NCBI GenBank assembly: GCA_945948555.1
Contig: CAMFBM010000003.1
Location: forward strand, 7,839 to 71,838
Direction of reading: 5' to 3'
DNA: 64,000 nt
Source of the DNA: an uncultured Bacteroidales bacterium
GTDB lineage: Bacteria > Bacteroidota > Bacteroidia > Bacteroidales > UBA932
Both the position numbers and the translations under genes were made by a program. Below, piece after piece: positions 47,708 to 56,954 of the stretch. Below the pieces are notes generated by a model. That model was not told where the DNA came from. It worked only from the letters and a program-made list of their open reading frames with translations, and made no database searches. Every line of letters starts with the position of its first letter. Position 1 is the first letter of the stretch.

Positions 47708-49978
47708 TCAGATACTTTTGTTTCTGGGGGGGGTAAAACGGATTTCTACCCTCGCAGGCATACCAGGAAAATAGTTCACATCTATTCTTCCGCCCACGGA
47801 TGCAATCATCTTTTCGTATTGATTCGTATCCGAATATGCATTGTCTATGAAGATGATTGTCTCCCCGGCTGAATTTTCTGTCCATCCGATTGTGATTCTG
47901 CCATTGCACTTCTTCAGCGCATCCGATATGAGCGAGTTCATAACTTGGTAAATAACAGGACGGTTAGATTCGATTTCGCACGTTTCTGGACCGGGACAGA
48001 AGACAATCCTGGACTCTCCGTCTGAATGAACGGAACTGTTGATATATATGTCCTCCATTATTTCTCCCACACGTACATTCGAAATGATGACTTTTTCGAA
48101 ATCCCTTGTCTGGAGCGTGTTTCCCATCACGGAATCGAGAAGTTTCAGAAGGCTGTCGTTGGCTCTCTTTACCTTGTCCTCGCAATCTGTCTTTCTTTCA
48201 TCCGAAAGGTCGTTGAAATGGTCTGCAAGCAGGCTGGAATAGAATACGATTTCATTGACAGGTTTGCGGAATTCATCGTTCATAGATGCAAGGAAACTCT
48301 CTTTTTCAGCCACTTCTTCGCTCCTGCGGTAAGCCTGCTTCAATTCTTCGTTACGTTTGTAGGCTTCATCGTTGAAATAGAAGAATCCGGCTTTCACTTC
48401 GTCCTTGTCCTTTGTTCCGGCTACGCTTATGATGTGAACGGAGACGGCCCTTACCTGTCCGCCTGAAGGCATACGCAGCAGTAACTCAATATCTTTTTCC
48501 CCCTCGAAAAAGTCACTTAGCATCATCTGTCTGAAGGTGTCTCTTTTAGGCTCGAGAATGTATTCCAGAATTTTGTCAATGGATATATCCTCCTCGGGTA
48601 ATCCGAAATCTTTGTAGAATGAAGGAGAAAAACGGAAAATCCTGTCTTTAAACATACGCCAGGTATAGGAATTGAGTTCGGACAGGATATACTCCACCTG
48701 AATATTCGATTGTTCCGCCTCCTTCGCCTTTTCGAACAGCTGTTTACGCTGTTTCTTCTGTCTTATGGCCATAAAGCTCGGAGTAATGACCGCCAAAGCC
48801 ACGAAACCTGCAGCAAGCAGAGCAATCAGGACATCAAGTAGAATGTTTATATCCTTGGACCTTTGCAGGAGGGGTAGATTTACAAACTTTACACCTTTGG
48901 GAAATTCGTCGGCATACGGGTGTAGGTTTTTCACAAGCCTCCAGTCCAGCCAATAGTCTTTCTTCAGTTTGCCCCAGGGAATCTGCTTCGGCGCAGTGCC
49001 GTTCAGAAGTTTGTCAACAATGGGGTGAAGCTGTTCCCACATTGAAGGGAAGGGAGTGAAATAACCTCCCATACAGGAGTTCAGGGCATTTATCAGTGGC
49101 AGGTCGAAATGGTCCGGAACCATAGTGAAATACGGCCCTATGTTGTAGGACATCGCAGTGTTGGCGTATTCGTCGCTTTTGAGGTGAAGGAATGAAGTTT
49201 CCTGCTGCTGGGTGAAGAAGATCCATTCCATCTTGAAGGACCCCGGAACTCCGGGATGCCGGTCATTCTTTTCCGGCCACATTGTGCTCACTGGAAAGAG
49301 GGTTATTTTAGAATCCCTGAACTGCTTCAGGTGTATGCGGTCTTCCTGTTCCAGATGGAGGTTGGGCCTGTAATGCTCGGGGTCGTTTCCTATATCTGCC
49401 AATATGTGTTCGCGGATATGGTCGTCTATATAGGTGCTGTCCATAACGGTGACTACATAGTTGGGAAAGCCTAAATCTTTGATGAAATCCAGATTCTTTT
49501 TTACTGCCGGCTCTGCCTCCATCACCACCACATTGGACATTGCTGGCAGCCTGTTTTTCCAGGTCGGATGCACCTGGCCTGCACAGAGTATTGGCGTGTC
49601 TTTCAGCAGAGGGTCGTCCACCTGCGCCACCGCGCCAGCAACATCGTCACCATATACTATTAGAAGGTCAGGTGTCCCCACCTCGCTCTTTACACTGTTG
49701 AGTGCACGACGGAGCAAATTCCTTGCATCGTGTTCGTATTCCTTTTTCTCCCAATATTTTCCGATATAGTCCGAGACATAGAAAAAATGTAGATTGTAGC
49801 GGGAGGTGTCGGCATATTCCTCTTTTGCCGACTTAATGAAACTGTCCCATATCTGGGTGTTTCGGCTGAAAGGGCAGAGTACGGCAATTTCCTTCTTCTC
49901 CGCCGCTCCGTCGCAGGAAACAAGCAGCAAAGCCGCAAGCACCGTGAGAAGTGCAGTTATGATATTCCCCCGTTTCAT
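47708..49978 (-). CDS. Sensor histidine-kinase paralogue, predicted catalytically inactive
   Basis: Lipobox LLVSC, periplasmic domain, TM and PAS-like segment; H-box reads SMNDEFRKP; degenerate HATPase domain. Confidence 0.8.
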   Translation of the reverse strand: MKRGNIITALLTVLAALLLVSCDGAAEKKEIAVLCPFSRNTQIWDSFIKSAKEEYADTSRYNLHFFYVSDYIGKYWEKKEYEHDARNLLRRALNSVKSEVGTPDLLIVYGDDVAGAVAQVDDPLLKDTPILCAGQVHPTWKNRLPAMSNVVVMEAEPAVKKNLDFIKDLGFPNYVVTVMDSTYIDDHIREHILADIGNDPEHYRPNLHLEQEDRIHLKQFRDSKITLFPVSTMWPEKNDRHPGVPGSFKMEWIFFTQQQETSFLHLKSDEYANTAMSYNIGPYFTMVPDHFDLPLINALNSCMGGYFTPFPSMWEQLHPIVDKLLNGTAPKQIPWGKLKKDYWLDWRLVKNLHPYADEFPKGVKFVNLPLLQRSKDINILLDVLIALLAAGFVALAVITPSFMAIRQKKQRKQLFEKAKEAEQSNIQVEYILSELNSYTWRMFKDRIFRFSPSFYKDFGLPEEDISIDKILEYILEPKRDTFRQMMLSDFFEGEKDIELLLRMPSGGQVRAVSVHIISVAGTKDKDEVKAGFFYFNDEAYKRNEELKQAYRRSEEVAEKESFLASMNDEFRKPVNEIVFYSSLLADHFNDLSDERKTDCEDKVKRANDSLLKLLDSVMGNTLQTRDFEKVIISNVRVGEIMEDIYINSSVHSDGESRIVFCPGPETCEIESNRPVIYQVMNSLISDALKKCNGRITIGWTENSAGETIIFIDNAYSDTNQYEKMIASVGGRIDVNYFPGMPARVEIRFTPPRNKSI

Positions 49979-52365
49979 TGTCCAAACAATATTTTGAATG
50001 TTGAGCCCTCTCCCAGTTCGCTTTCCAGCGAAATCTGTCCGCCCATTTGTTCCACAAAAGCCTTGCAGATATACAGTCCAAGTCCGCAGCCCGGGGTAAA
50101 ACTGTCCACCTTGAAGAAGCGGTCAAAGATAAACTCTTGATTTTCAGGGACTATGCCTATACCCTTGTCTGAAACTCTGATTTCTGTTTTCCCGTCTTCA
50201 GTGATATTTATGCTCACTCTTATTTCCGTCTCCGGTTCGGAGAACATTATGGCGTTGAACAAAAGATTGTCAAGAATATTGGTCAGCATAATCCTGTCAG
50301 CCTTGACAATCACCGCATCCTTGCAGAAATCTGTAATTATTTCCCTTTCAGGCCTCTTTTCCCCAATTATCTCCCTCACCAGTCCGCACAGTTCGATGTC
50401 TTCATAATACGGGTTTGCCGGATTTCTGCTTATGCGTGCTGCAGTAAGTATATTCCTTATGGTGTGCTGGAGCTGGGTGGAATTGCAGTGTATGGCTGAT
50501 GAATATTCTTCAAGTTCCATTTCCTCCATAGGCATTCCTGGCATTGCCAGAAGCTGGGCATATCCCACAATCGAGTTAAGCGGAGTGCGAATCGCATGGT
50601 TCATCGAGGCGATGAAGCCCTCCCTTGTGCGTGCAGCCGTAATGATGCGGTTGGTTTCGGCCTCTATGGCTTCCAACTGCTTCTGGTTGTCAATGTTTAC
50701 CATTACCCCGCTTCTAAGGACTCCGTCATCTTCCGGAGACTTTCCCACGTTCATACGCAGTTCATACCAGTGGTACGGCTTGCCGTCAATGGAAATGTAA
50801 GCCTGGAGGGTATAATTCCCGGGTTCTTCAATTCTGAAGAAATTGATTATTCTTTCTTTGAAGAAGTCCGAAGCCTCCATACGTTCCAGACTTTCAATGT
50901 TTTTGTTGTCAAGTTTCCAGGTACTGAAATCAGCCTTGCTCATCAGTTCTTTCAGCAACTTGTTGTTGCAAATGGTCTCATTTGCATAGTCCCTCAGACG
51001 GCGCTCATTCCTGCGGGCCTTCCGGGAATAGTAGCTTATGATAATTATGCTCCCCACCAGAGCTGCGACAAACAGCAGGATACTGGTCATCAAATATGTC
51101 CAGTACAATGCGGGATTCCTGTCTTTGAGCCCGGCATTGGCTATGTTGATGTTTGAGGGTATACTGTTTACGTCCAGCCCTTTGTCCCGCAGAACATCCC
51201 AATTCAGATTATAGGTCGGCGTGTGCTGGAGACCGCGCAGTTCCTCAGCCTTTTCCCCTTTGAGCAGTCTCACTCCCGCGCTCACAGCATCCCTGATCTG
51301 GCTTTCGGCTGTCGGGAAATAGCCTCCTATACACTTGTCGTTCACGAGATAATCTTCTGCGACCATAGTGAAGTACGGTAGGAAACTCGGCCCTTCCACA
51401 AGTCCTCGCGTCTTGTTGTCGTGTTTTGTCTGGATGAAAAAATAGGAAGATCTTTGCAGATAGAAAGCCCAAGTGGTGGGCATCTGATAGATATTCATGC
51501 AGTTCCACGAAGGATCCAACACACTGCGGCAGGAGAAGACAATTTTGTGCTCGTCTTTGGCTATGGCACGAACTCTGTCTTCATTGACTCTCGGATGCAG
51601 ATTGTTGTAGAACTTTGTCTTGTCGAGACTATCCATCTGTTCATTGAGCAGGTTGAACAAAATCTTGTCATTCCAGAGGTGGGGCACATCGAGAAGGGTG
51701 ATAAGGCGGTTGGGATATACGGGCAGGAAGTCTTCGTTGCGGATTTTTTCAATTATCCGGGAAGAGAACTCATTGGCGAACACCAGGTTAGGTTCCAAGT
51801 TCACTCTGTCCATTATGTTCACCATATCGTTCCATCTTCCGCCTTCGTAATTTATCTTCAATAATTCATACTGATAGGGCAGGAATTCCTCACTCCTTAT
51901 GCCGAAACAAATCACGGGGATTGATGCTGTGACCGGATTGGTGTCAGTAATCAGCAACCAGCGGTTTGCATTGCCATAGGAGAGTATGAGGTCTGGCATA
52001 CGACCCTCAGCCCGTAGCTTGAGTATGAGTTCGTTGAGCATAGGCCGCTCGAGGGATTCATATCTTTCGGTAATGTGGGCGAAATGCACCTGAACATCCC
52101 CGATGATGCCCTGTCTTGCAAGTTCCTCCCTTGCCAGACTTGTCCATTTCCTGTATGAGGGGTCGCTTTCATCCGTGGGCCAGTAAAGCAGGACGTTGGC
52201 CTCAATTTTTTCCGCTTCAGGCCTGCACGCACAAAAAAACATCACATAGCAGAGCAGAGTGATGAGTTTTCCTGATATGGCGTATTTTTTTTGTCTTTGA
52301 CAAGGCGGGTCAGGTTTTCTGCAATCCAACTTAAAGTCTGCAAATGGAGACCGTAATTCAAACAC
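49975..52365 (-). CDS. Sensor histidine kinase (GTG start)
   Basis: H-box SMNHAIRTPLNSI, N-box NLLFNAIMF, G1 SDKGIGI, F-box IFDRFFK and G2 GCGLGLYI; periplasmic domain and TM. Confidence 0.92.
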   Translation of the reverse strand: MFELRSPFADFKLDCRKPDPPCQRQKKYAISGKLITLLCYVMFFCACRPEAEKIEANVLLYWPTDESDPSYRKWTSLAREELARQGIIGDVQVHFAHITERYESLERPMLNELILKLRAEGRMPDLILSYGNANRWLLITDTNPVTASIPVICFGIRSEEFLPYQYELLKINYEGGRWNDMVNIMDRVNLEPNLVFANEFSSRIIEKIRNEDFLPVYPNRLITLLDVPHLWNDKILFNLLNEQMDSLDKTKFYNNLHPRVNEDRVRAIAKDEHKIVFSCRSVLDPSWNCMNIYQMPTTWAFYLQRSSYFFIQTKHDNKTRGLVEGPSFLPYFTMVAEDYLVNDKCIGGYFPTAESQIRDAVSAGVRLLKGEKAEELRGLQHTPTYNLNWDVLRDKGLDVNSIPSNINIANAGLKDRNPALYWTYLMTSILLFVAALVGSIIIISYYSRKARRNERRLRDYANETICNNKLLKELMSKADFSTWKLDNKNIESLERMEASDFFKERIINFFRIEEPGNYTLQAYISIDGKPYHWYELRMNVGKSPEDDGVLRSGVMVNIDNQKQLEAIEAETNRIITAARTREGFIASMNHAIRTPLNSIVGYAQLLAMPGMPMEEMELEEYSSAIHCNSTQLQHTIRNILTAARISRNPANPYYEDIELCGLVREIIGEKRPEREIITDFCKDAVIVKADRIMLTNILDNLLFNAIMFSEPETEIRVSINITEDGKTEIRVSDKGIGIVPENQEFIFDRFFKVDSFTPGCGLGLYICKAFVEQMGGQISLESELGEGSTFKILFGQ

Positions 52366-52496: not shown

Positions 52497-52958
52497 TTGA
52501 TGATGGATATAGGACCTCTGAACAATATTGATTGCAGCAACTTGTCATTGATGATTGTGGATGACATTCCAATCAATACAAAACTTCTTGGAAAACTGCT
52601 TGAACCTGCTGGTTTCAAGACTTTACTTCAATACAACAACAGTCAATTGGCCTTGGACAGCGTGAAGACTGTCAATCCGGATATTATCCTGCTGGATATT
52701 ATGATGCCTGGAGTGGACGGTTTCGCATTCCTCTCTTCTGTACGCGAAGACAAGAGCCTGGACCACGTAAGGGTGGTGCTTGTTTCGGCAGTAAGCGAGT
52801 CTGAAGAAGTCCACAGGGCACTCTCGATGGGTGCAAACGACTATTTGACTAAACCTATCAATGCGAAAAGACTATATTCTTGTGTGGCGCAGCAGATACA
52901 GCAAATTCTGGGGGGGGGATTAAATGACGAGACGGAAAAAGAAGGTATTGATTGCTGA
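52497..52958 (+). CDS. Stand-alone response regulator (receiver domain only)
   Basis: IVDD, DIILLDIMMP, VSA and YLTKP motifs; no output domain. Confidence 0.92.
   Translation: MMMDIGPLNNIDCSNLSLMIVDDIPINTKLLGKLLEPAGFKTLLQYNNSQLALDSVKTVNPDIILLDIMMPGVDGFAFLSSVREDKSLDHVRVVLVSAVSESEEVHRALSMGANDYLTKPINAKRLYSCVAQQIQQILGGGLNDETEKEGIDC
52910..52918 (+). repeat. G9 homopolymer at the junction of the two receiver genes
   Basis: ATTCT-GGGGGGGGG-ATTAAATG. Confidence 0.9.
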
Positions 52959-53304
52959 AAACAAGCAGTTCCTCGTTGATGTGATAAGAGAATCCTTAAG
53001 ATCTGAGGGATATGACTGTGTTTGTGTCAATACCGAGAACGAACTTTACGGGGTTATAGACAATGTTGATGCTGCCGTGGTGGGATTGGATATCTGCCCG
53101 GGAGATCAGCCCCGCAGGGTGGATATGATAGCGGAAATCAAACACGAGTTCGAGTTGCCTTTGCTGGCACTTACAAGCCTGCAGTATTCATCAGTCCGGA
53201 TAGAATTGCTGAAGAAAGGAGCCGATGATGTCCTTACAAAGCCTTTCAATCCTGACGAACTGGCAGTGAGACTGGGCAAGATAATGGAAAGAAATGCCAG
53301 ATGA
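52924..53304 (+). CDS. Atypical stand-alone receiver domain
   Basis: VLIAEN, DAAVVGLDI, LTS and VLTKPFNPDEL; the acidic pocket is degenerate. Confidence 0.85.
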   Translation: MTRRKKKVLIAENKQFLVDVIRESLRSEGYDCVCVNTENELYGVIDNVDAAVVGLDICPGDQPRRVDMIAEIKHEFELPLLALTSLQYSSVRIELLKKGADDVLTKPFNPDELAVRLGKIMERNAR

Positions 53305-54011
53305 AACGTTTTTTGAACATCCTGTTTGCGATTGTGGCTATAGTGCTTCTATCTCCTTTGATGATAGCTATCTCGCTTGTACTGATGATTCAGGGAGGTG
53401 AGTCGCCCATATATTCATCGATAAGGGTGGGGAAGAACTGGAAAAAGTTCCGTATTTACAAGTTCAGGACTATGAACAAGGGGGCCGACAAGAAGCTTAC
53501 AGACCTTCAGTCTATGAATTCTTATATCAGGGTGGAAGGGAATGAAATAGAGATAACGAGGACCTTCAGCAGTGATGCTTATCTGTATGCTGACAACTAC
53601 AAGGTGCGTGAGGACATCTATCTTTCGGAACGGCACAAATGCTTCGAGGGCTGTTTCATAAAGATTGAGAACGATCCGAGAATTACTGAACTTGGCCGTT
53701 TCCTCAGGAAGACAAGTCTGGATGAACTGCCTCAGTTGTTCAATATTCTCAAGGGAGATATGGCTCTGGTAGGGAACAGACCTCTTTCAATTGAGGAGGC
53801 GGAACTTCTGACAAACAATACTGACGGACTCAGGTTTAAGGCTTCGGCCGGTCTGACCGGACTCTGGCAGACGGATGACCGCAAGGACGATATGCCACCT
53901 TCTGAGCGCATCAGACTGGACAATCTGTATGCAGAAAAGGAATCCTTGAGTTTTGACTTTAAACTTATTTTGGTATCTTTCAAGAAAGTTATTACAGGAC
54001 ATAATGAATAG
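53301..54011 (+). CDS. Priming sugar transferase (undecaprenyl-P glycosyl-1-P transferase family)
   Basis: RVGKNWKKFRIYKFRTM, DPRITELGRFLRKTSLDELPQLFNILKGDMALVGNRP and GLTGLWQ. Confidence 0.93.
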   Translation: MKRFLNILFAIVAIVLLSPLMIAISLVLMIQGGESPIYSSIRVGKNWKKFRIYKFRTMNKGADKKLTDLQSMNSYIRVEGNEIEITRTFSSDAYLYADNYKVREDIYLSERHKCFEGCFIKIENDPRITELGRFLRKTSLDELPQLFNILKGDMALVGNRPLSIEEAELLTNNTDGLRFKASAGLTGLWQTDDRKDDMPPSERIRLDNLYAEKESLSFDFKLILVSFKKVITGHNE

Positions 54012-54819
54012 CCGCATATTGGCAACCACATTGGCTCTCATCCTGAGTACAGTCGCAGGTGCTCAGGGGTTGCCTACTAAACAGATACGTGTTGACAGCA
54101 CTCTAATGATACTCAATGCGATGACGGTGGAGGACTATATGAATATGGAAATCCCTCCTCTGGACACATTGTATTACAATGCCTTCAGTATGTCCAATGC
54201 TGTGAAGTACTATGAGGAGGAGGTAAATTACTACACCTGTGCGGTGAGGAACGAGCAGATGAAGCCGCTCGAATGGTTGAGGTTAGTCACTTCTGCAAGT
54301 TACGGCAATACTGACATCGTCGGCATCCTCCGCAATGAGGCCAGTTATCCCATCTGGATGGAGAGCAGCACCAGGCAGAGGAATTTCTTCTTCAATGTCG
54401 GACTTACGGTGAACATACCTTTCTCGGACATATTCAATACTCACAACAGGGTCAGGCAGGCCAAGGCCAAGGTCCGTCAGACCCAGTATCGCAGGCAGTC
54501 CGAGTTGGACAATATAAAACAGCAGATTATTGGTCTTTACTGCGACATCATTTCCGGCATCAATTCCCTTCAGAGTGCAGCGGAAAGGCTGGTAGTGGCA
54601 AAGGCACAATATGATTTTGCCGAGAAGGATTTCGCAAACAACAAGATTACTGCCGAGGTTCTTTACAGATGCAAGTCGTATGAGACTGCCGCCACTCAAG
54701 ACTATGAGAGACTGAAACGTGACATAAATCAGGCCCTGCTCAGCCTCGAAGTACTTTCCTGCACCAAAATCATCAAGCCTGTTTCGGATGTTACACCTGG
54801 ACCTCTCACTGAACAATAA
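54004..54819 (+). CDS. Short TolC/OEP-family outer-membrane protein
   Basis: Signal peptide and one helix-beta-beta-helix OEP-like repeat (FNVGLTVNIPF...ARAQYDFAEKDF-like heptads). Confidence 0.65.
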   Translation: MNSRILATTLALILSTVAGAQGLPTKQIRVDSTLMILNAMTVEDYMNMEIPPLDTLYYNAFSMSNAVKYYEEEVNYYTCAVRNEQMKPLEWLRLVTSASYGNTDIVGILRNEASYPIWMESSTRQRNFFFNVGLTVNIPFSDIFNTHNRVRQAKAKVRQTQYRRQSELDNIKQQIIGLYCDIISGINSLQSAAERLVVAKAQYDFAEKDFANNKITAEVLYRCKSYETAATQDYERLKRDINQALLSLEVLSCTKIIKPVSDVTPGPLTEQ

Positions 54820-56954
54820 TGAAGACACTTCAATTCATAATCAGGATACTCTCAAAGAGGTGGTTGATGCTTTTGAGCCTGCCTCTGGTGGCAGCCTTGT
54901 TGGTGTTCGCCCTGATGAGCCGCAATCCCAAGATGTACAAGTCCAGCAGTACCATCTACACCGGTATAGTCTCCGGCTATGATGTTCTTGCGGCAGAGTC
55001 CACCACCAGGGATTGGATGAGCGTCAACAATGCAGTGGACAATCTGATAAGCGTCATAACTGCCGAATCCACGCTCAGCAATGTATCTATGCGTCTTCTG
55101 GCGCGTAATATTTCACATCTTGACTGTCCCGACGAAAGGGAGTATATTACTGAGAATACTGCTGCGGAGTTGCGTAATATGCTTTCTAATGATATCTTAG
55201 AATTGACAGTGCGTTGTGACGAGGAGGCGACCTACCGCAATTTTATTGAAGCTTATGAGGCGAGCAGGGACAACTGGTTCAAGCAGATGTTCCACTGGAA
55301 CCACCGTCACTACAGCTTCAAAGCCCTTTCCGGTATTGAGGTAAGCCGCGTGGGCAGTTCCGATATGATACGCCTGTCCTATACCTGCGATGACCAGTTT
55401 GTGGCCTATCACACTCTGAAAATACTTGAAAGCGAATTTGTAAAACAATATCTCTCAATACGCTACCAGCAGACTACCGATGTCGTCAATTATTTCCAGA
55501 GGGAACTCAAGGCCATTCAGGCAGACCTGACCAGGAAGGAGGACGAACTGACCAAATACAATGTGGACAACGGCATCATCAACTATCAGGAACAGACAAA
55601 AATGGTTGCCGAAAGGCAGAAGGACCTGGATGGTCTCATAGAACTTGTGATGAGGGAAAGGGACGGATCTGAGCAGAAAATCCGCATACTCGAAGAGAAA
55701 CTCGGCTATGTTACTGACCTGTACACCAACAATATATCCTTCCTGACTCAGTTGCACACCATAAACGGACTCTACACCCAGATGTCCACCGACACCACCT
55801 CCAATGCAGATTTGAATATCAGGCTTGCAGAAGAGACTGAAAAACTCAGGTCGATAGGCAACGACATAAGTGTGTCGCAGTACACCAAGGAGGGGCTCTC
55901 CAATGATTTGCTTGTCACGGAATGGATTAACGCAATTCTCACCAAGTCTAAGGCAGAAGCAGAATTGAGTATTCTTATCGCAAATAAAAAGGAAATGGAG
56001 AAAGATGTAAGACGTTTTTCGCCTGTGGGGTCTTCAATAAAGAGACAGGAAAGGGAAATAAATTTTTCCGAGCAGAACTATCTTTCAAATCTCCGTTCTC
56101 TCAATGAGGCGAAACTCCGGGAGAAGAATCTTCAGCTGACATCTGCGACTTTCAAGGTCCTCACTCCTCCTGCAGTGGCCCTCTATCCGGAAAAGACCAA
56201 AAACAAACTCTATTCACTGGTGGCATTCCTGTTTACCTTCATCCTCCTTTGCGGTTTAGTCTTACTCTCCGAGGAAATGAACCGCAAACCGTACGATTCC
56301 ACCTCTGCGAACAATCTCGTGAATCTGCCGGTTATCGGGGCCTATCCTCTGCTGAAGAAAAAGTCAAAATATTCCGATATTTATGCCAGCCTGGCGATGC
56401 GCAATCTGGGCAACACCATCACAAACTACTTCGACCGGGACCAGACTGTGAACATCATCAACGTTTTCAGCATAAACAAGGGTGAAGGCAAGAGTACAGT
56501 CTGCAGGGCTTTTAACGACTATTTCGAGAGCATTGAGACCAAGCCGGTAATCGTGGACTGGGAAAAGGACTTCGAAAGCAATTCCAAATACTATCTGCTT
56601 GCCAACTCCATCTATGACTTCGGTGTGAACGAAAACAATATGGCATCAATGCCGGAGGCAAATGTCATAATTGTGGAGTACCCGCCGCTCAAGGACGCTT
56701 CCTTTCCGACCAAGGTGCTGAATACCTCTGCAATCAATGTCCTGGTTGTGGATTCAGAAAGGGATTGGTCAGGAATGGCCAGTCTTACCATCAATGAACT
56801 GAAGCGTTTCAATAAGCATAACAATATTGCCATCATACTGAACAACAGTGATATAGACACAGTAGGTTCTTTCACCGGAATGCTCCCTCCTTTCAGATGG
56901 ACGCACAAGCTGAGATTCGCCGTTTGGAATCTCGGCACCGAGACCAAAGTATAG
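54819..56954 (+). CDS. Wzc/GumC-like polysaccharide co-polymerase
   Basis: Two TMs flanking a long coiled-coil periplasmic region; Walker-A-like FSINKGEGKST and Walker-B-like VIIVEYPP. Confidence 0.8.
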   Translation: MKTLQFIIRILSKRWLMLLSLPLVAALLVFALMSRNPKMYKSSSTIYTGIVSGYDVLAAESTTRDWMSVNNAVDNLISVITAESTLSNVSMRLLARNISHLDCPDEREYITENTAAELRNMLSNDILELTVRCDEEATYRNFIEAYEASRDNWFKQMFHWNHRHYSFKALSGIEVSRVGSSDMIRLSYTCDDQFVAYHTLKILESEFVKQYLSIRYQQTTDVVNYFQRELKAIQADLTRKEDELTKYNVDNGIINYQEQTKMVAERQKDLDGLIELVMRERDGSEQKIRILEEKLGYVTDLYTNNISFLTQLHTINGLYTQMSTDTTSNADLNIRLAEETEKLRSIGNDISVSQYTKEGLSNDLLVTEWINAILTKSKAEAELSILIANKKEMEKDVRRFSPVGSSIKRQEREINFSEQNYLSNLRSLNEAKLREKNLQLTSATFKVLTPPAVALYPEKTKNKLYSLVAFLFTFILLCGLVLLSEEMNRKPYDSTSANNLVNLPVIGAYPLLKKKSKYSDIYASLAMRNLGNTITNYFDRDQTVNIINVFSINKGEGKSTVCRAFNDYFESIETKPVIVDWEKDFESNSKYYLLANSIYDFGVNENNMASMPEANVIIVEYPPLKDASFPTKVLNTSAINVLVVDSERDWSGMASLTINELKRFNKHNNIAIILNNSDIDTVGSFTGMLPPFRWTHKLRFAVWNLGTETKV

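Follow-up and report, generated by a model that had tools for sequence, protein, structure and literature searches.

The 64,000-nucleotide window analysed here (contig CAMFBM010000003.1, from an uncultured Bacteroidales bacterium) belongs to a metagenome-assembled genome (MAG) of about 2.3 Mb, the near homologues of which carry the label Candidatus Cryptobacteroides, a genus of uncultured Bacteroidales from gut and rumen. Within the window, a rightward operon running from receiver genes to a polymerase gene was found to contain two stand-alone receivers, RR1 and RR2. RR1 is intact, whereas RR2 carries a glycine on the position of the phospho-acceptor aspartate. The gene of RR2 overlaps the gene of a priming phosphoglycosyl transferase (PGT). 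The features of RR2 and the transferase gene, in coordinates of the window, are as follows. DD1 and DD2 denote the first and second residue of the acidic pair, D the phospho-acceptor, T and K the conserved threonine and lysine positions, and the clade is that of RR2.

52924..53304, + strand: RR2, a stand-alone aspartate-less receiver of 126 amino acids (open reading frame, PF00072, AlphaFold, Foldseek, dN/dS)
52957..52962, + strand: Glu12-Asn13 on the site of the acidic pair; Glu12 retains DD1, whereas Asn13 removes DD2, the direct metal ligand (sequence)
53068..53070, + strand: Asp49, the 'PD' Asp at D-5, which anchors the register (93% in the clade, 100% in canonical relatives)
53083..53085, + strand: Gly54, which occupies the phospho-acceptor position (profile alignments, secondary-structure register of two AlphaFold models)
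53089..53091, + strand: Asp56 at D+2, off the acceptor position; most relatives contain Asn (profile alignments, models)
53173..53175, + strand: Thr84, retained on the conserved T position (invariant or almost so among clade members)
53188..53271, + strand: the alpha4-beta5-alpha5 face, residues 89-116, with the signature S..RI..L..GADD..TKPFNP.EL..R (column entropy)
53230..53232, + strand: Val103 at K-3, which is the Tyr/Phe switch residue in intact relatives (clade alignment)
53239..53244, + strand: Lys106-Pro107, the conserved K position, kept (invariant in the clade)
53301..53304, + strand: ATGA shared by the RR2 stop and the transferase start (sequence)
53301..54011, + strand: PGT, a small monotopic phosphoglycosyl transferase of 236 amino acids with no N-terminal receiver-like domain (PF02397, 181.6 bits)

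RR2 was found to consist of one receiver domain without an output domain (PF00072, 42.8 bits against a cut-off of 30.2). Its AlphaFold model (pLDDT 93.6) had the (beta-alpha)5 fold with five strands and five helices, and the model was matched by Foldseek to the receiver of VicR (8fk2_A) with a TM of 0.87. Receivers of the OmpR/PhoB family (VicR/WalR, YycF and PhoB) were the closest solved structures, with a TM of 0.82-0.87. When compared with a canonical phosphorylatable PF00072 receiver, RR2 contained the fold and the conserved Thr and Lys, whereas the acceptor Asp and the second acidic residue were absent. An earlier note on this DNA had described a first strand ending in AEN instead of DD or ED, T/S and KP motifs that were kept, and an ATGA overlap with the priming transferase. 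All of these were found again, the first as Glu12-Asn13 (codons 52957-52962), the second as Thr84 and Lys106-Pro107, which were invariant or almost invariant in the clade, and the third at nucleotides 53301-53304, where the overlap was also present in 9 of 11 orthologous loci.

The assignment of the acceptor position depends on the register of the beta3 stretch. The earlier note had read this stretch as D-A-A-V-V-G, with the Gly codon at 53083-53085, and had placed the next Asp two residues after the Gly. The same register was obtained from profile alignments, from transitional relatives and from two AlphaFold models, and the next Asp was Asp56 (53089-53091). In a MAFFT alignment with 56 canonical relatives, the invariant Asp of the relatives fell on position 54 of RR2 and Asp49 fell on the invariant 'PD' Asp. 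The hhalign comparison of the clade profile with the canonical profile set V48-D49-A-A-V-V-G54 opposite P-D-L-I-I-S-D, and an hmmsearch of the clade profile against the PDB put the acceptor Asp of AdeR ('LILLDIKLP') and of PleD ('IILLDVMMP') on the Gly54 column. Two basal members of the clade were found to contain a full-length loop, and their sequence 'PDAIIINLNMKGMSG' aligned without gaps to the canonical 'PDLIISDLNMPEMSG'. The predicted structures gave the same placement. The RR2 model contained beta3 at residues 50-54, alpha3 from residue 62, beta4 at 80-84 and beta5 at 102-105, whereas the AlphaFold model of an intact relative (pLDDT 95.8) contained beta3 at 48-52, ending on the acceptor Asp52, alpha3 from residue 60, beta4 at 78-82 and beta5 at 100-103. 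From beta3 through to the C-terminus the two models differed by the same +2, so that Asp52 corresponds to Gly54, Ser82 to Thr84 and Lys104 to Lys106.

Other alignments gave different registers. A single-sequence phmmer search against the receivers of YycF and ArcA placed 'GLDI' of RR2 on 'LLDI', which puts Asp56 on the acceptor position, and pairwise BLASTP gave a third register for the beta3 stretch that differed from both the phmmer and the profile registers. Single-sequence and pairwise alignments were considered unreliable in this stretch. Asp56 as the acceptor, as suggested by phmmer against YycF, was rejected once the profiles, the transitional relatives and both models had agreed on Gly54. 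Gly54 thus occupies, by alignment and by model, the phospho-acceptor position of RR2.

When 1.8 billion representative proteins were searched exhaustively with a profile, the top matches were further stand-alone proteins of 115-127 amino acids. In the tree, these proteins and RR2 formed one fully supported clade with a stem of 0.96 substitutions per site. Orthologues of RR2 with 53-100% identity were present on many metagenome contigs and also in genomes labelled Cryptobacteroides, Rikenellaceae or Bacteroidales. Asp was found on the acceptor site in none of the 123 distinct sequences of the RR2 clade, whereas it was present in all 56 of the nearest canonical relatives, and because of this difference the loss in RR2 is not explained by chance or by a sequencing error. 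Conservation across orthologues, which the earlier note had named as a check, therefore gave a clade-wide loss of the acceptor Asp. The acceptor residue of the clade was Gly, Ser or Asn. The DD2 position contained D, N, S, K, A, G, E or L in the clade, whereas the canonical relatives contained a DD or ED pair with Asp at DD2 in 56 of 56. At K-3, the clade contained Val or Ile, except for Phe in the two basal members and in one orthologue, whereas Tyr or Phe was found in all 56 canonical relatives. The T and K positions were kept in the clade; the canonical relatives contained Ser or Thr and Lys at these positions. Judged by its residues, RR2 falls under the definition of a pseudo-receiver, in the aspartate-less subset that lacks both DD2 and D (PMC12632262).

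Column entropy was compared between the RR2 clade and the intact relatives. The highest entropy was found in the acceptor and beta3-alpha3 loop, with 1.97 in the clade against 0.37 in the intact relatives, and the DD loop reached 1.29 against 0.46. The other regions were similar in both groups, with 0.11 against 0.00 in the Lys and beta5-alpha5 loop, 0.88 against 0.77 in beta5 and 1.34 against 1.32 in alpha4. The invariant residues of the clade were Ser89, Arg92, Gly99, Asp102, Lys106, Pro107, Pro110, Glu112 and Arg116, all of which lie on alpha4-beta5-alpha5. This is the face used for dimerisation and effector contact in receivers of the OmpR/PhoB type. The loops of the active site have been released from constraint, whereas alpha4-beta5-alpha5 is as constrained as in the intact relatives. 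The dN/dS of RR2 was 0.17-0.20, which is about two to three times the values of the export and polymerase genes nearby (0.07-0.10) and far below 1, and RR2 was the fastest-evolving gene of the receiver-to-polymerase operon (dN of 0.30-0.39, against 0.12-0.22 in RR1 and PGT). By these substitution patterns RR2 is clearly under purifying selection and functional, with its function shifted away from the phosphorylation pocket.

The most constant genomic partner of RR2 was the transferase. RR2 lay immediately upstream of PGT in all orthologous loci, a position that purifying selection has maintained together with the translational coupling of the two genes, and the synteny of two divergent kinase-like genes (HK_A and HK_B, described below), RR1, RR2, PGT, OEP-like protein, co-polymerase and polymerase was kept in these loci. 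The operon was rare in the genus, as a PGT of the window type was found in 5 of 201 genomes, and RR2 was present in front of it in all five. The PGT of the window consisted of little more than the Bac_transf domain (profile positions 1-178 of 179 across residues 2-231), aligned to WbaP and PglC and kept the DE dyad. The PGTs of the RR2 clade were likewise bare, with 236-244 amino acids, and the window PGT was without the dead N-terminal receiver that is typical of its relatives (about 390 amino acids). Two features were noted in the receiver-coupled PGT subfamily as a whole, in bare and receiver-fused forms alike: an invariant Asn in the 'VGNRP' motif (in the window, within 53301-54011) and a variable insert of 40-60 amino acids between KFR(S/T)M and DPRIT when compared with PglC and WbaP. 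Downstream of PGT, the operon contained an OEP-like protein, a co-polymerase-like protein of 711 amino acids, a Wzy-like polymerase and glycosyltransferases. The 711-amino-acid protein in the co-polymerase position (54819-56954) had no Pfam match at E <= 0.01, and it was 47-97% conserved over all related loci.

The linkage with a transferase was also found in receivers that have kept their aspartate. When 400 Bacteroidales genomes and 400 from the family of the window were searched with the clade profile, it matched best to intact stand-alone receivers of about 120 amino acids, which were present in Dysgonomonas, Xylanibacter/Prevotella, Prolixibacteraceae and many MAGs. Among the best loci of the order, a PGT gene adjoined the intact receiver in 28 of 29, and among the canonical loci of the family in 26 of 27; in each set the single exception was cut by a contig end. 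In an independent metagenome sample, 34 distinct stand-alone relatives had enough sequence behind them to be counted, and all 34 were followed by a PGT within 750 nucleotides, whereas none of the 6 multidomain relatives was. The 4-nucleotide overlap of the receiver stop with the PGT start was frequent among the canonical relatives. Most of the PGTs of these relatives were 374-425 amino acids long (about 390), and the extra N-terminal 130-180 amino acids were found to be a degenerate receiver domain, with PF00072 scores of 33-38 bits in some and an hhalign probability of 99.3% against stand-alone receivers. These fused dead domains usually contained Glu on the acceptor site and had mostly lost the Lys-Pro-Phe motif.

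Two sources of RR2 were considered. The order RR1-RR2-PGT is collinear with receiver, dead domain and PGT, which would suggest that RR2 is a dead domain split off from the transferase. This origin was rejected, since the RR2 clade reached an hhalign score of 217 with the stand-alone canonical receivers and of 77 with the fused dead domains, which are also without KPFNP. The invariant KPFNP.EL..R motif is common to RR2 and the stand-alone canonical receivers. On the strength of the hhalign scores and this motif, a live PGT-coupled regulator is taken to be the ancestor of RR2. RR2 shares with the KPFNP.EL family its size, its motif and the adjoining Bac_transf gene and is without DD2, D and the aromatic K-3 residue. 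A hidden Markov model of the canonical family ranked RR2 about tenth among the receivers of the window's genome, with 54.7 bits, below RR1 and the receivers of hybrid systems, as degenerate members score poorly on the profile of an intact family.

Some variation was observed among the intact modules. The loci L101, L105, L112 and L119 contained intact stand-alone receivers together with short PGTs (241-266 amino acids) that are without the dead receiver domain, and in L119 the PGT was upstream of the receiver. By the arrangement of these four loci, the fused domain has been lost more than once without the loss of the receiver's Asp. The kinases adjoining the intact module were found to bear a receiver of their own, either N-terminal in proteins of about 380 amino acids or C-terminal in hybrid kinases (L104:240-1319, L109:1911-3005 and L130:2-1468).

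Upstream of RR2, the window contained an intact receiver and two divergently transcribed kinase-like genes.

52497..52958, + strand: RR1, an intact stand-alone receiver with DD, D, S, Y and K (PF00072, 92.4 bits), which overlaps RR2 by 35 nucleotides
49975..52365, - strand: HK_B, an intact membrane histidine kinase, divergently transcribed (HisKA and HATPase_c; syntenic in L013-L020)
47708..49978, - strand: HK_A, a paralogous kinase-like sensor (pseudokinase), divergently transcribed (only a sub-threshold HisKA match of 25 bits; no HATPase_c match)

RR1 was present in every locus of the RR2 clade with enough upstream sequence, and RR1, RR2 and a short PGT occurred together in all three aspartate-less subclades that were visible in context. 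The 35-nucleotide overlap of RR1 and RR2 (52924-52958) was in different frames and was found likewise in L013, a locus with 97% identity. In more distant orthologues RR1 stops short of the RR2 start, and its C-terminal tail in the window (GGGLNDETEKEGIDC) therefore seems to have been added recently. The best match of RR1 was to a kinase-attached receiver (84 bits), whereas its matches to stand-alone receivers reached up to 67 bits; these scores give a weak hint that RR1 was once part of a hybrid kinase and became detached from it. In HK_A, the H-box was MNDEFRKP, in which Asp replaces His. The dN/dS of HK_A against the closest locus was 0.61, the highest in the cluster, with few substitutions. 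Two loci, L023 and L157, which represent the other two aspartate-less subclades, contained no kinase nearby, and the aspartate-less state is therefore independent of the kinase and pseudokinase pair of the window. In the same two loci, a DUF4842 protein of 675-811 amino acids was present between RR1 and the dead receiver (L023:5975-8002 and L157:543-2978), and one of the two proteins also contained Big_2 and DUF4114.

A receiver that acts on an initiating PGT has been described in Myxococcus xanthus, where the single-domain regulator EpsW, phosphorylated on Asp58 by DifE, binds and stimulates the initiating PGT EpsZ post-translationally (Schwabe et al., mBio 2025, PMC12802240). The same authors suggested, from receiver domains that are fused to small monotopic PGTs, a wider use of the principle (PMC12802240), and fusions of a receiver with a PGT had been noted by O'Toole et al. 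(PNAS 2021; cited in PMC12802240). In the literature searched, only the Myxococcus study (paper and preprint) was found to tie receiver domains to phosphoglycosyl transferases. RR2 resembles EpsW in being an output-less single-domain receiver tied to the PGT that initiates a Wzx/Wzy-type exopolysaccharide. Control in the EpsW/EpsZ pair is post-translational and falls on the first committed step, a likeness that would extend to RR2 and its PGT through the functional tie suggested by their gene linkage. The two systems differ in that EpsW needs phosphorylation of Asp58, where RR2 has Gly, and in that EpsZ is a large dimeric monotopic PGT with a transmembrane bundle and a DUF, whereas the partner of RR2 is a bare small monotopic PGT of 236 amino acids. 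The binding of EpsW to EpsZ has been shown; for RR2 and its PGT, we infer contact by analogy and from gene linkage.

In our reading, which we hold to be somewhat more likely than not, RR2 is a phosphorylation-independent regulatory partner of the priming PGT, with contact through alpha4-beta5-alpha5 and with RR1 as the point of signal entry. RR2 would no longer be a phospho-switch and would act as a regulatory subunit that touches the small monotopic PGT through this face without Asp phosphorylation, much as EpsW~P makes contact with EpsZ in Myxococcus. The acceptor Asp has been lost, yet the gene is under selection, and RR2 therefore probably controls PGT by binding and not by phosphorylation. 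The signal of HK_B, and perhaps also that of the pseudokinase HK_A, would enter through the intact RR1, and RR1~P could bind RR2, compete with it or release it, which is the least certain step of the proposal. The earlier note had suggested a phosphorylation-independent adaptor that may bind the priming enzyme. Its first part found good support at the level of sequence, in the loss of the acceptor Asp, the free DD2, the Val/Ile at K-3, the loosened beta3-alpha3 loop and the conserved alpha4-beta5-alpha5, and the link to the priming enzyme was strongly supported by comparative genomics, as all orthologues precede PGT and 34 of 34 relatives are followed by one.

Several observations weigh against this reading. 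Thr84 and Lys106 stay invariant, which would also fit a pocket that still has something to bind, be it a ligand, Asp56 or the phosphoryl group of a different residue, and Asp56 is itself conserved in the subclade of the window and adjoins the pocket. RR1 is without the GADD...E..R pattern of RR2, and an OmpR-type heterodimer of RR1 and RR2 is not evident from sequence. The mechanism cannot equal that of EpsW in detail, because EpsW needs phosphorylation and a large dimeric PGT, and small monotopic PGTs are reported to be monomeric. Some of these observations would be accommodated by a receiver that still works as a phospho-switch, in which Asp56 reaches the pocket opened by Gly54, or Thr84/Ser85 takes the phosphoryl group, and RR2 then acts like EpsW~P. 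Single-sequence alignment can put Asp56 on the acceptor, Glu12, Thr84 and Lys106 are kept together with the subclade's Asp56, and phosphorylation at an alternative site is known in CheY D57N, at Ser56. However, the profile and model registers place Asp56 at D+2, and sister subclades with the same gene arrangement contain Ser at 54 and Asn or another residue at 56. RR2 has also lost DD2, the direct metal ligand, which is free to vary among its orthologues, as well as the Tyr/Phe switch residue, and we regard a surviving phospho-switch as very improbable.

An effect of RR2 inside the two-component circuit is a better candidate than a surviving phospho-switch and still an unlikely one. Here RR2 would dock on HK_B, HK_A or RR1 as a competitor, connector or heterodimer partner that tunes the flow of phosphoryl groups to RR1, and the pathway would be controlled by RR1 or another factor. 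In the window, kinases and receivers alike come as one live and one dead member, RR1 and RR2 always occur together, and such roles have been proposed in the pseudo-receiver review for CmrT in CmrRST and for WhiI/BldM (PMC12632262). However, the aspartate-less RR1-RR2-PGT core also occurs in the loci without a nearby kinase (L023 and L157), RR2 is linked most closely, and with the strongest conservation, to the start codon of PGT and not to RR1 or the kinases, and the intact relatives of RR2 are PGT-coupled everywhere. That RR2 is a decaying remnant without a function of its own, kept only since its reading frame carries expression signals for the downstream transferase, is hardly credible. The fast evolution of RR2 within the operon and its long stem branch would fit such decay, whereas its dN/dS of 0.17-0.20, an unbroken frame in over 120 distinct sequences of three subclades, some 20 positions that are invariant or nearly so and are gathered on one face, and a confident fold prediction all speak against it.

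The module of intact receiver and receiver-fused PGT in Bacteroidota is the nearest comparison for the RR2 locus, with the same KPFNP.EL..R family, the same position before PGT, a frequent 4-nucleotide overlap and a PGT of the same subfamily as that of the window (38-47% identity). There, the dead domain forms part of the enzyme and mostly bears Glu on its acceptor site, and the separate receiver is live, whereas in the RR2 locus the stand-alone receiver is dead (Gly/Ser), the enzyme is bare and an extra live RR1 is present. In most Bacteroidota, the live receiver is thought to act on PGT through the fused dead receiver domain. On this premise, we put forward, as a tentative proposal that is possible but doubtful, an exchange of roles in which the fused dead domain was lost, the formerly live receiver became the dead partner in trans, and a newly recruited live RR1, fed by the kinase and pseudokinase, now delivers the signal. 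RR2 would then be an obligatory adaptor, independent of phosphorylation, between RR1~P and a monomeric small monotopic PGT, and if this is true, a relay of live receiver, dead receiver and enzyme would have been rebuilt from different parts.

RR2 was also compared with the pseudo-receivers, of which about 80% have lost DD2, the commonest hallmark of the group in a 2025 review (PMC12632262). Like these proteins, RR2 is recognised by PF00072 and is without conserved active-site residues (PMC12632262). Like CmrT of the CmrRST system of C. difficile, its gene accompanies those of a kinase and a regulator that are otherwise normal (PMC12632262). However, CmrT and WhiI/BldM of Streptomyces are DNA-binding regulators, whereas RR2 is without an output domain and has an enzyme as its conserved partner in the genome. 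With the OmpR/PhoB family, RR2 shares the GADD..TKPF..EL..R pattern of the alpha4-beta5-alpha5 dimer face; unlike that family, it contains no DNA-binding domain, acceptor Asp or aromatic switch residue. What is new here is the occurrence together of a dead stand-alone partner, a bare enzyme and an extra live receiver.

Since the organisms are uncultured gut and rumen Bacteroidales, tests of these proposals would be heterologous. How bacteria gate the first step of polysaccharide synthesis, which consumes the carrier lipid, is largely unknown, and the only tested receiver that acts directly on an initiating transferase was reported in 2025 and requires phosphorylation. The RR2 locus is a natural variant in which the phospho-site has been lost and the coupling to the enzyme has been kept, and its intact relatives are at hand for comparison. 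It opens the questions of which surface of a receiver meets a small monotopic transferase and whether phosphorylation serves the contact or only its timing. RR2 also adds a non-orphan, enzyme-linked case to the poorly understood pseudo-receivers of bacteria.

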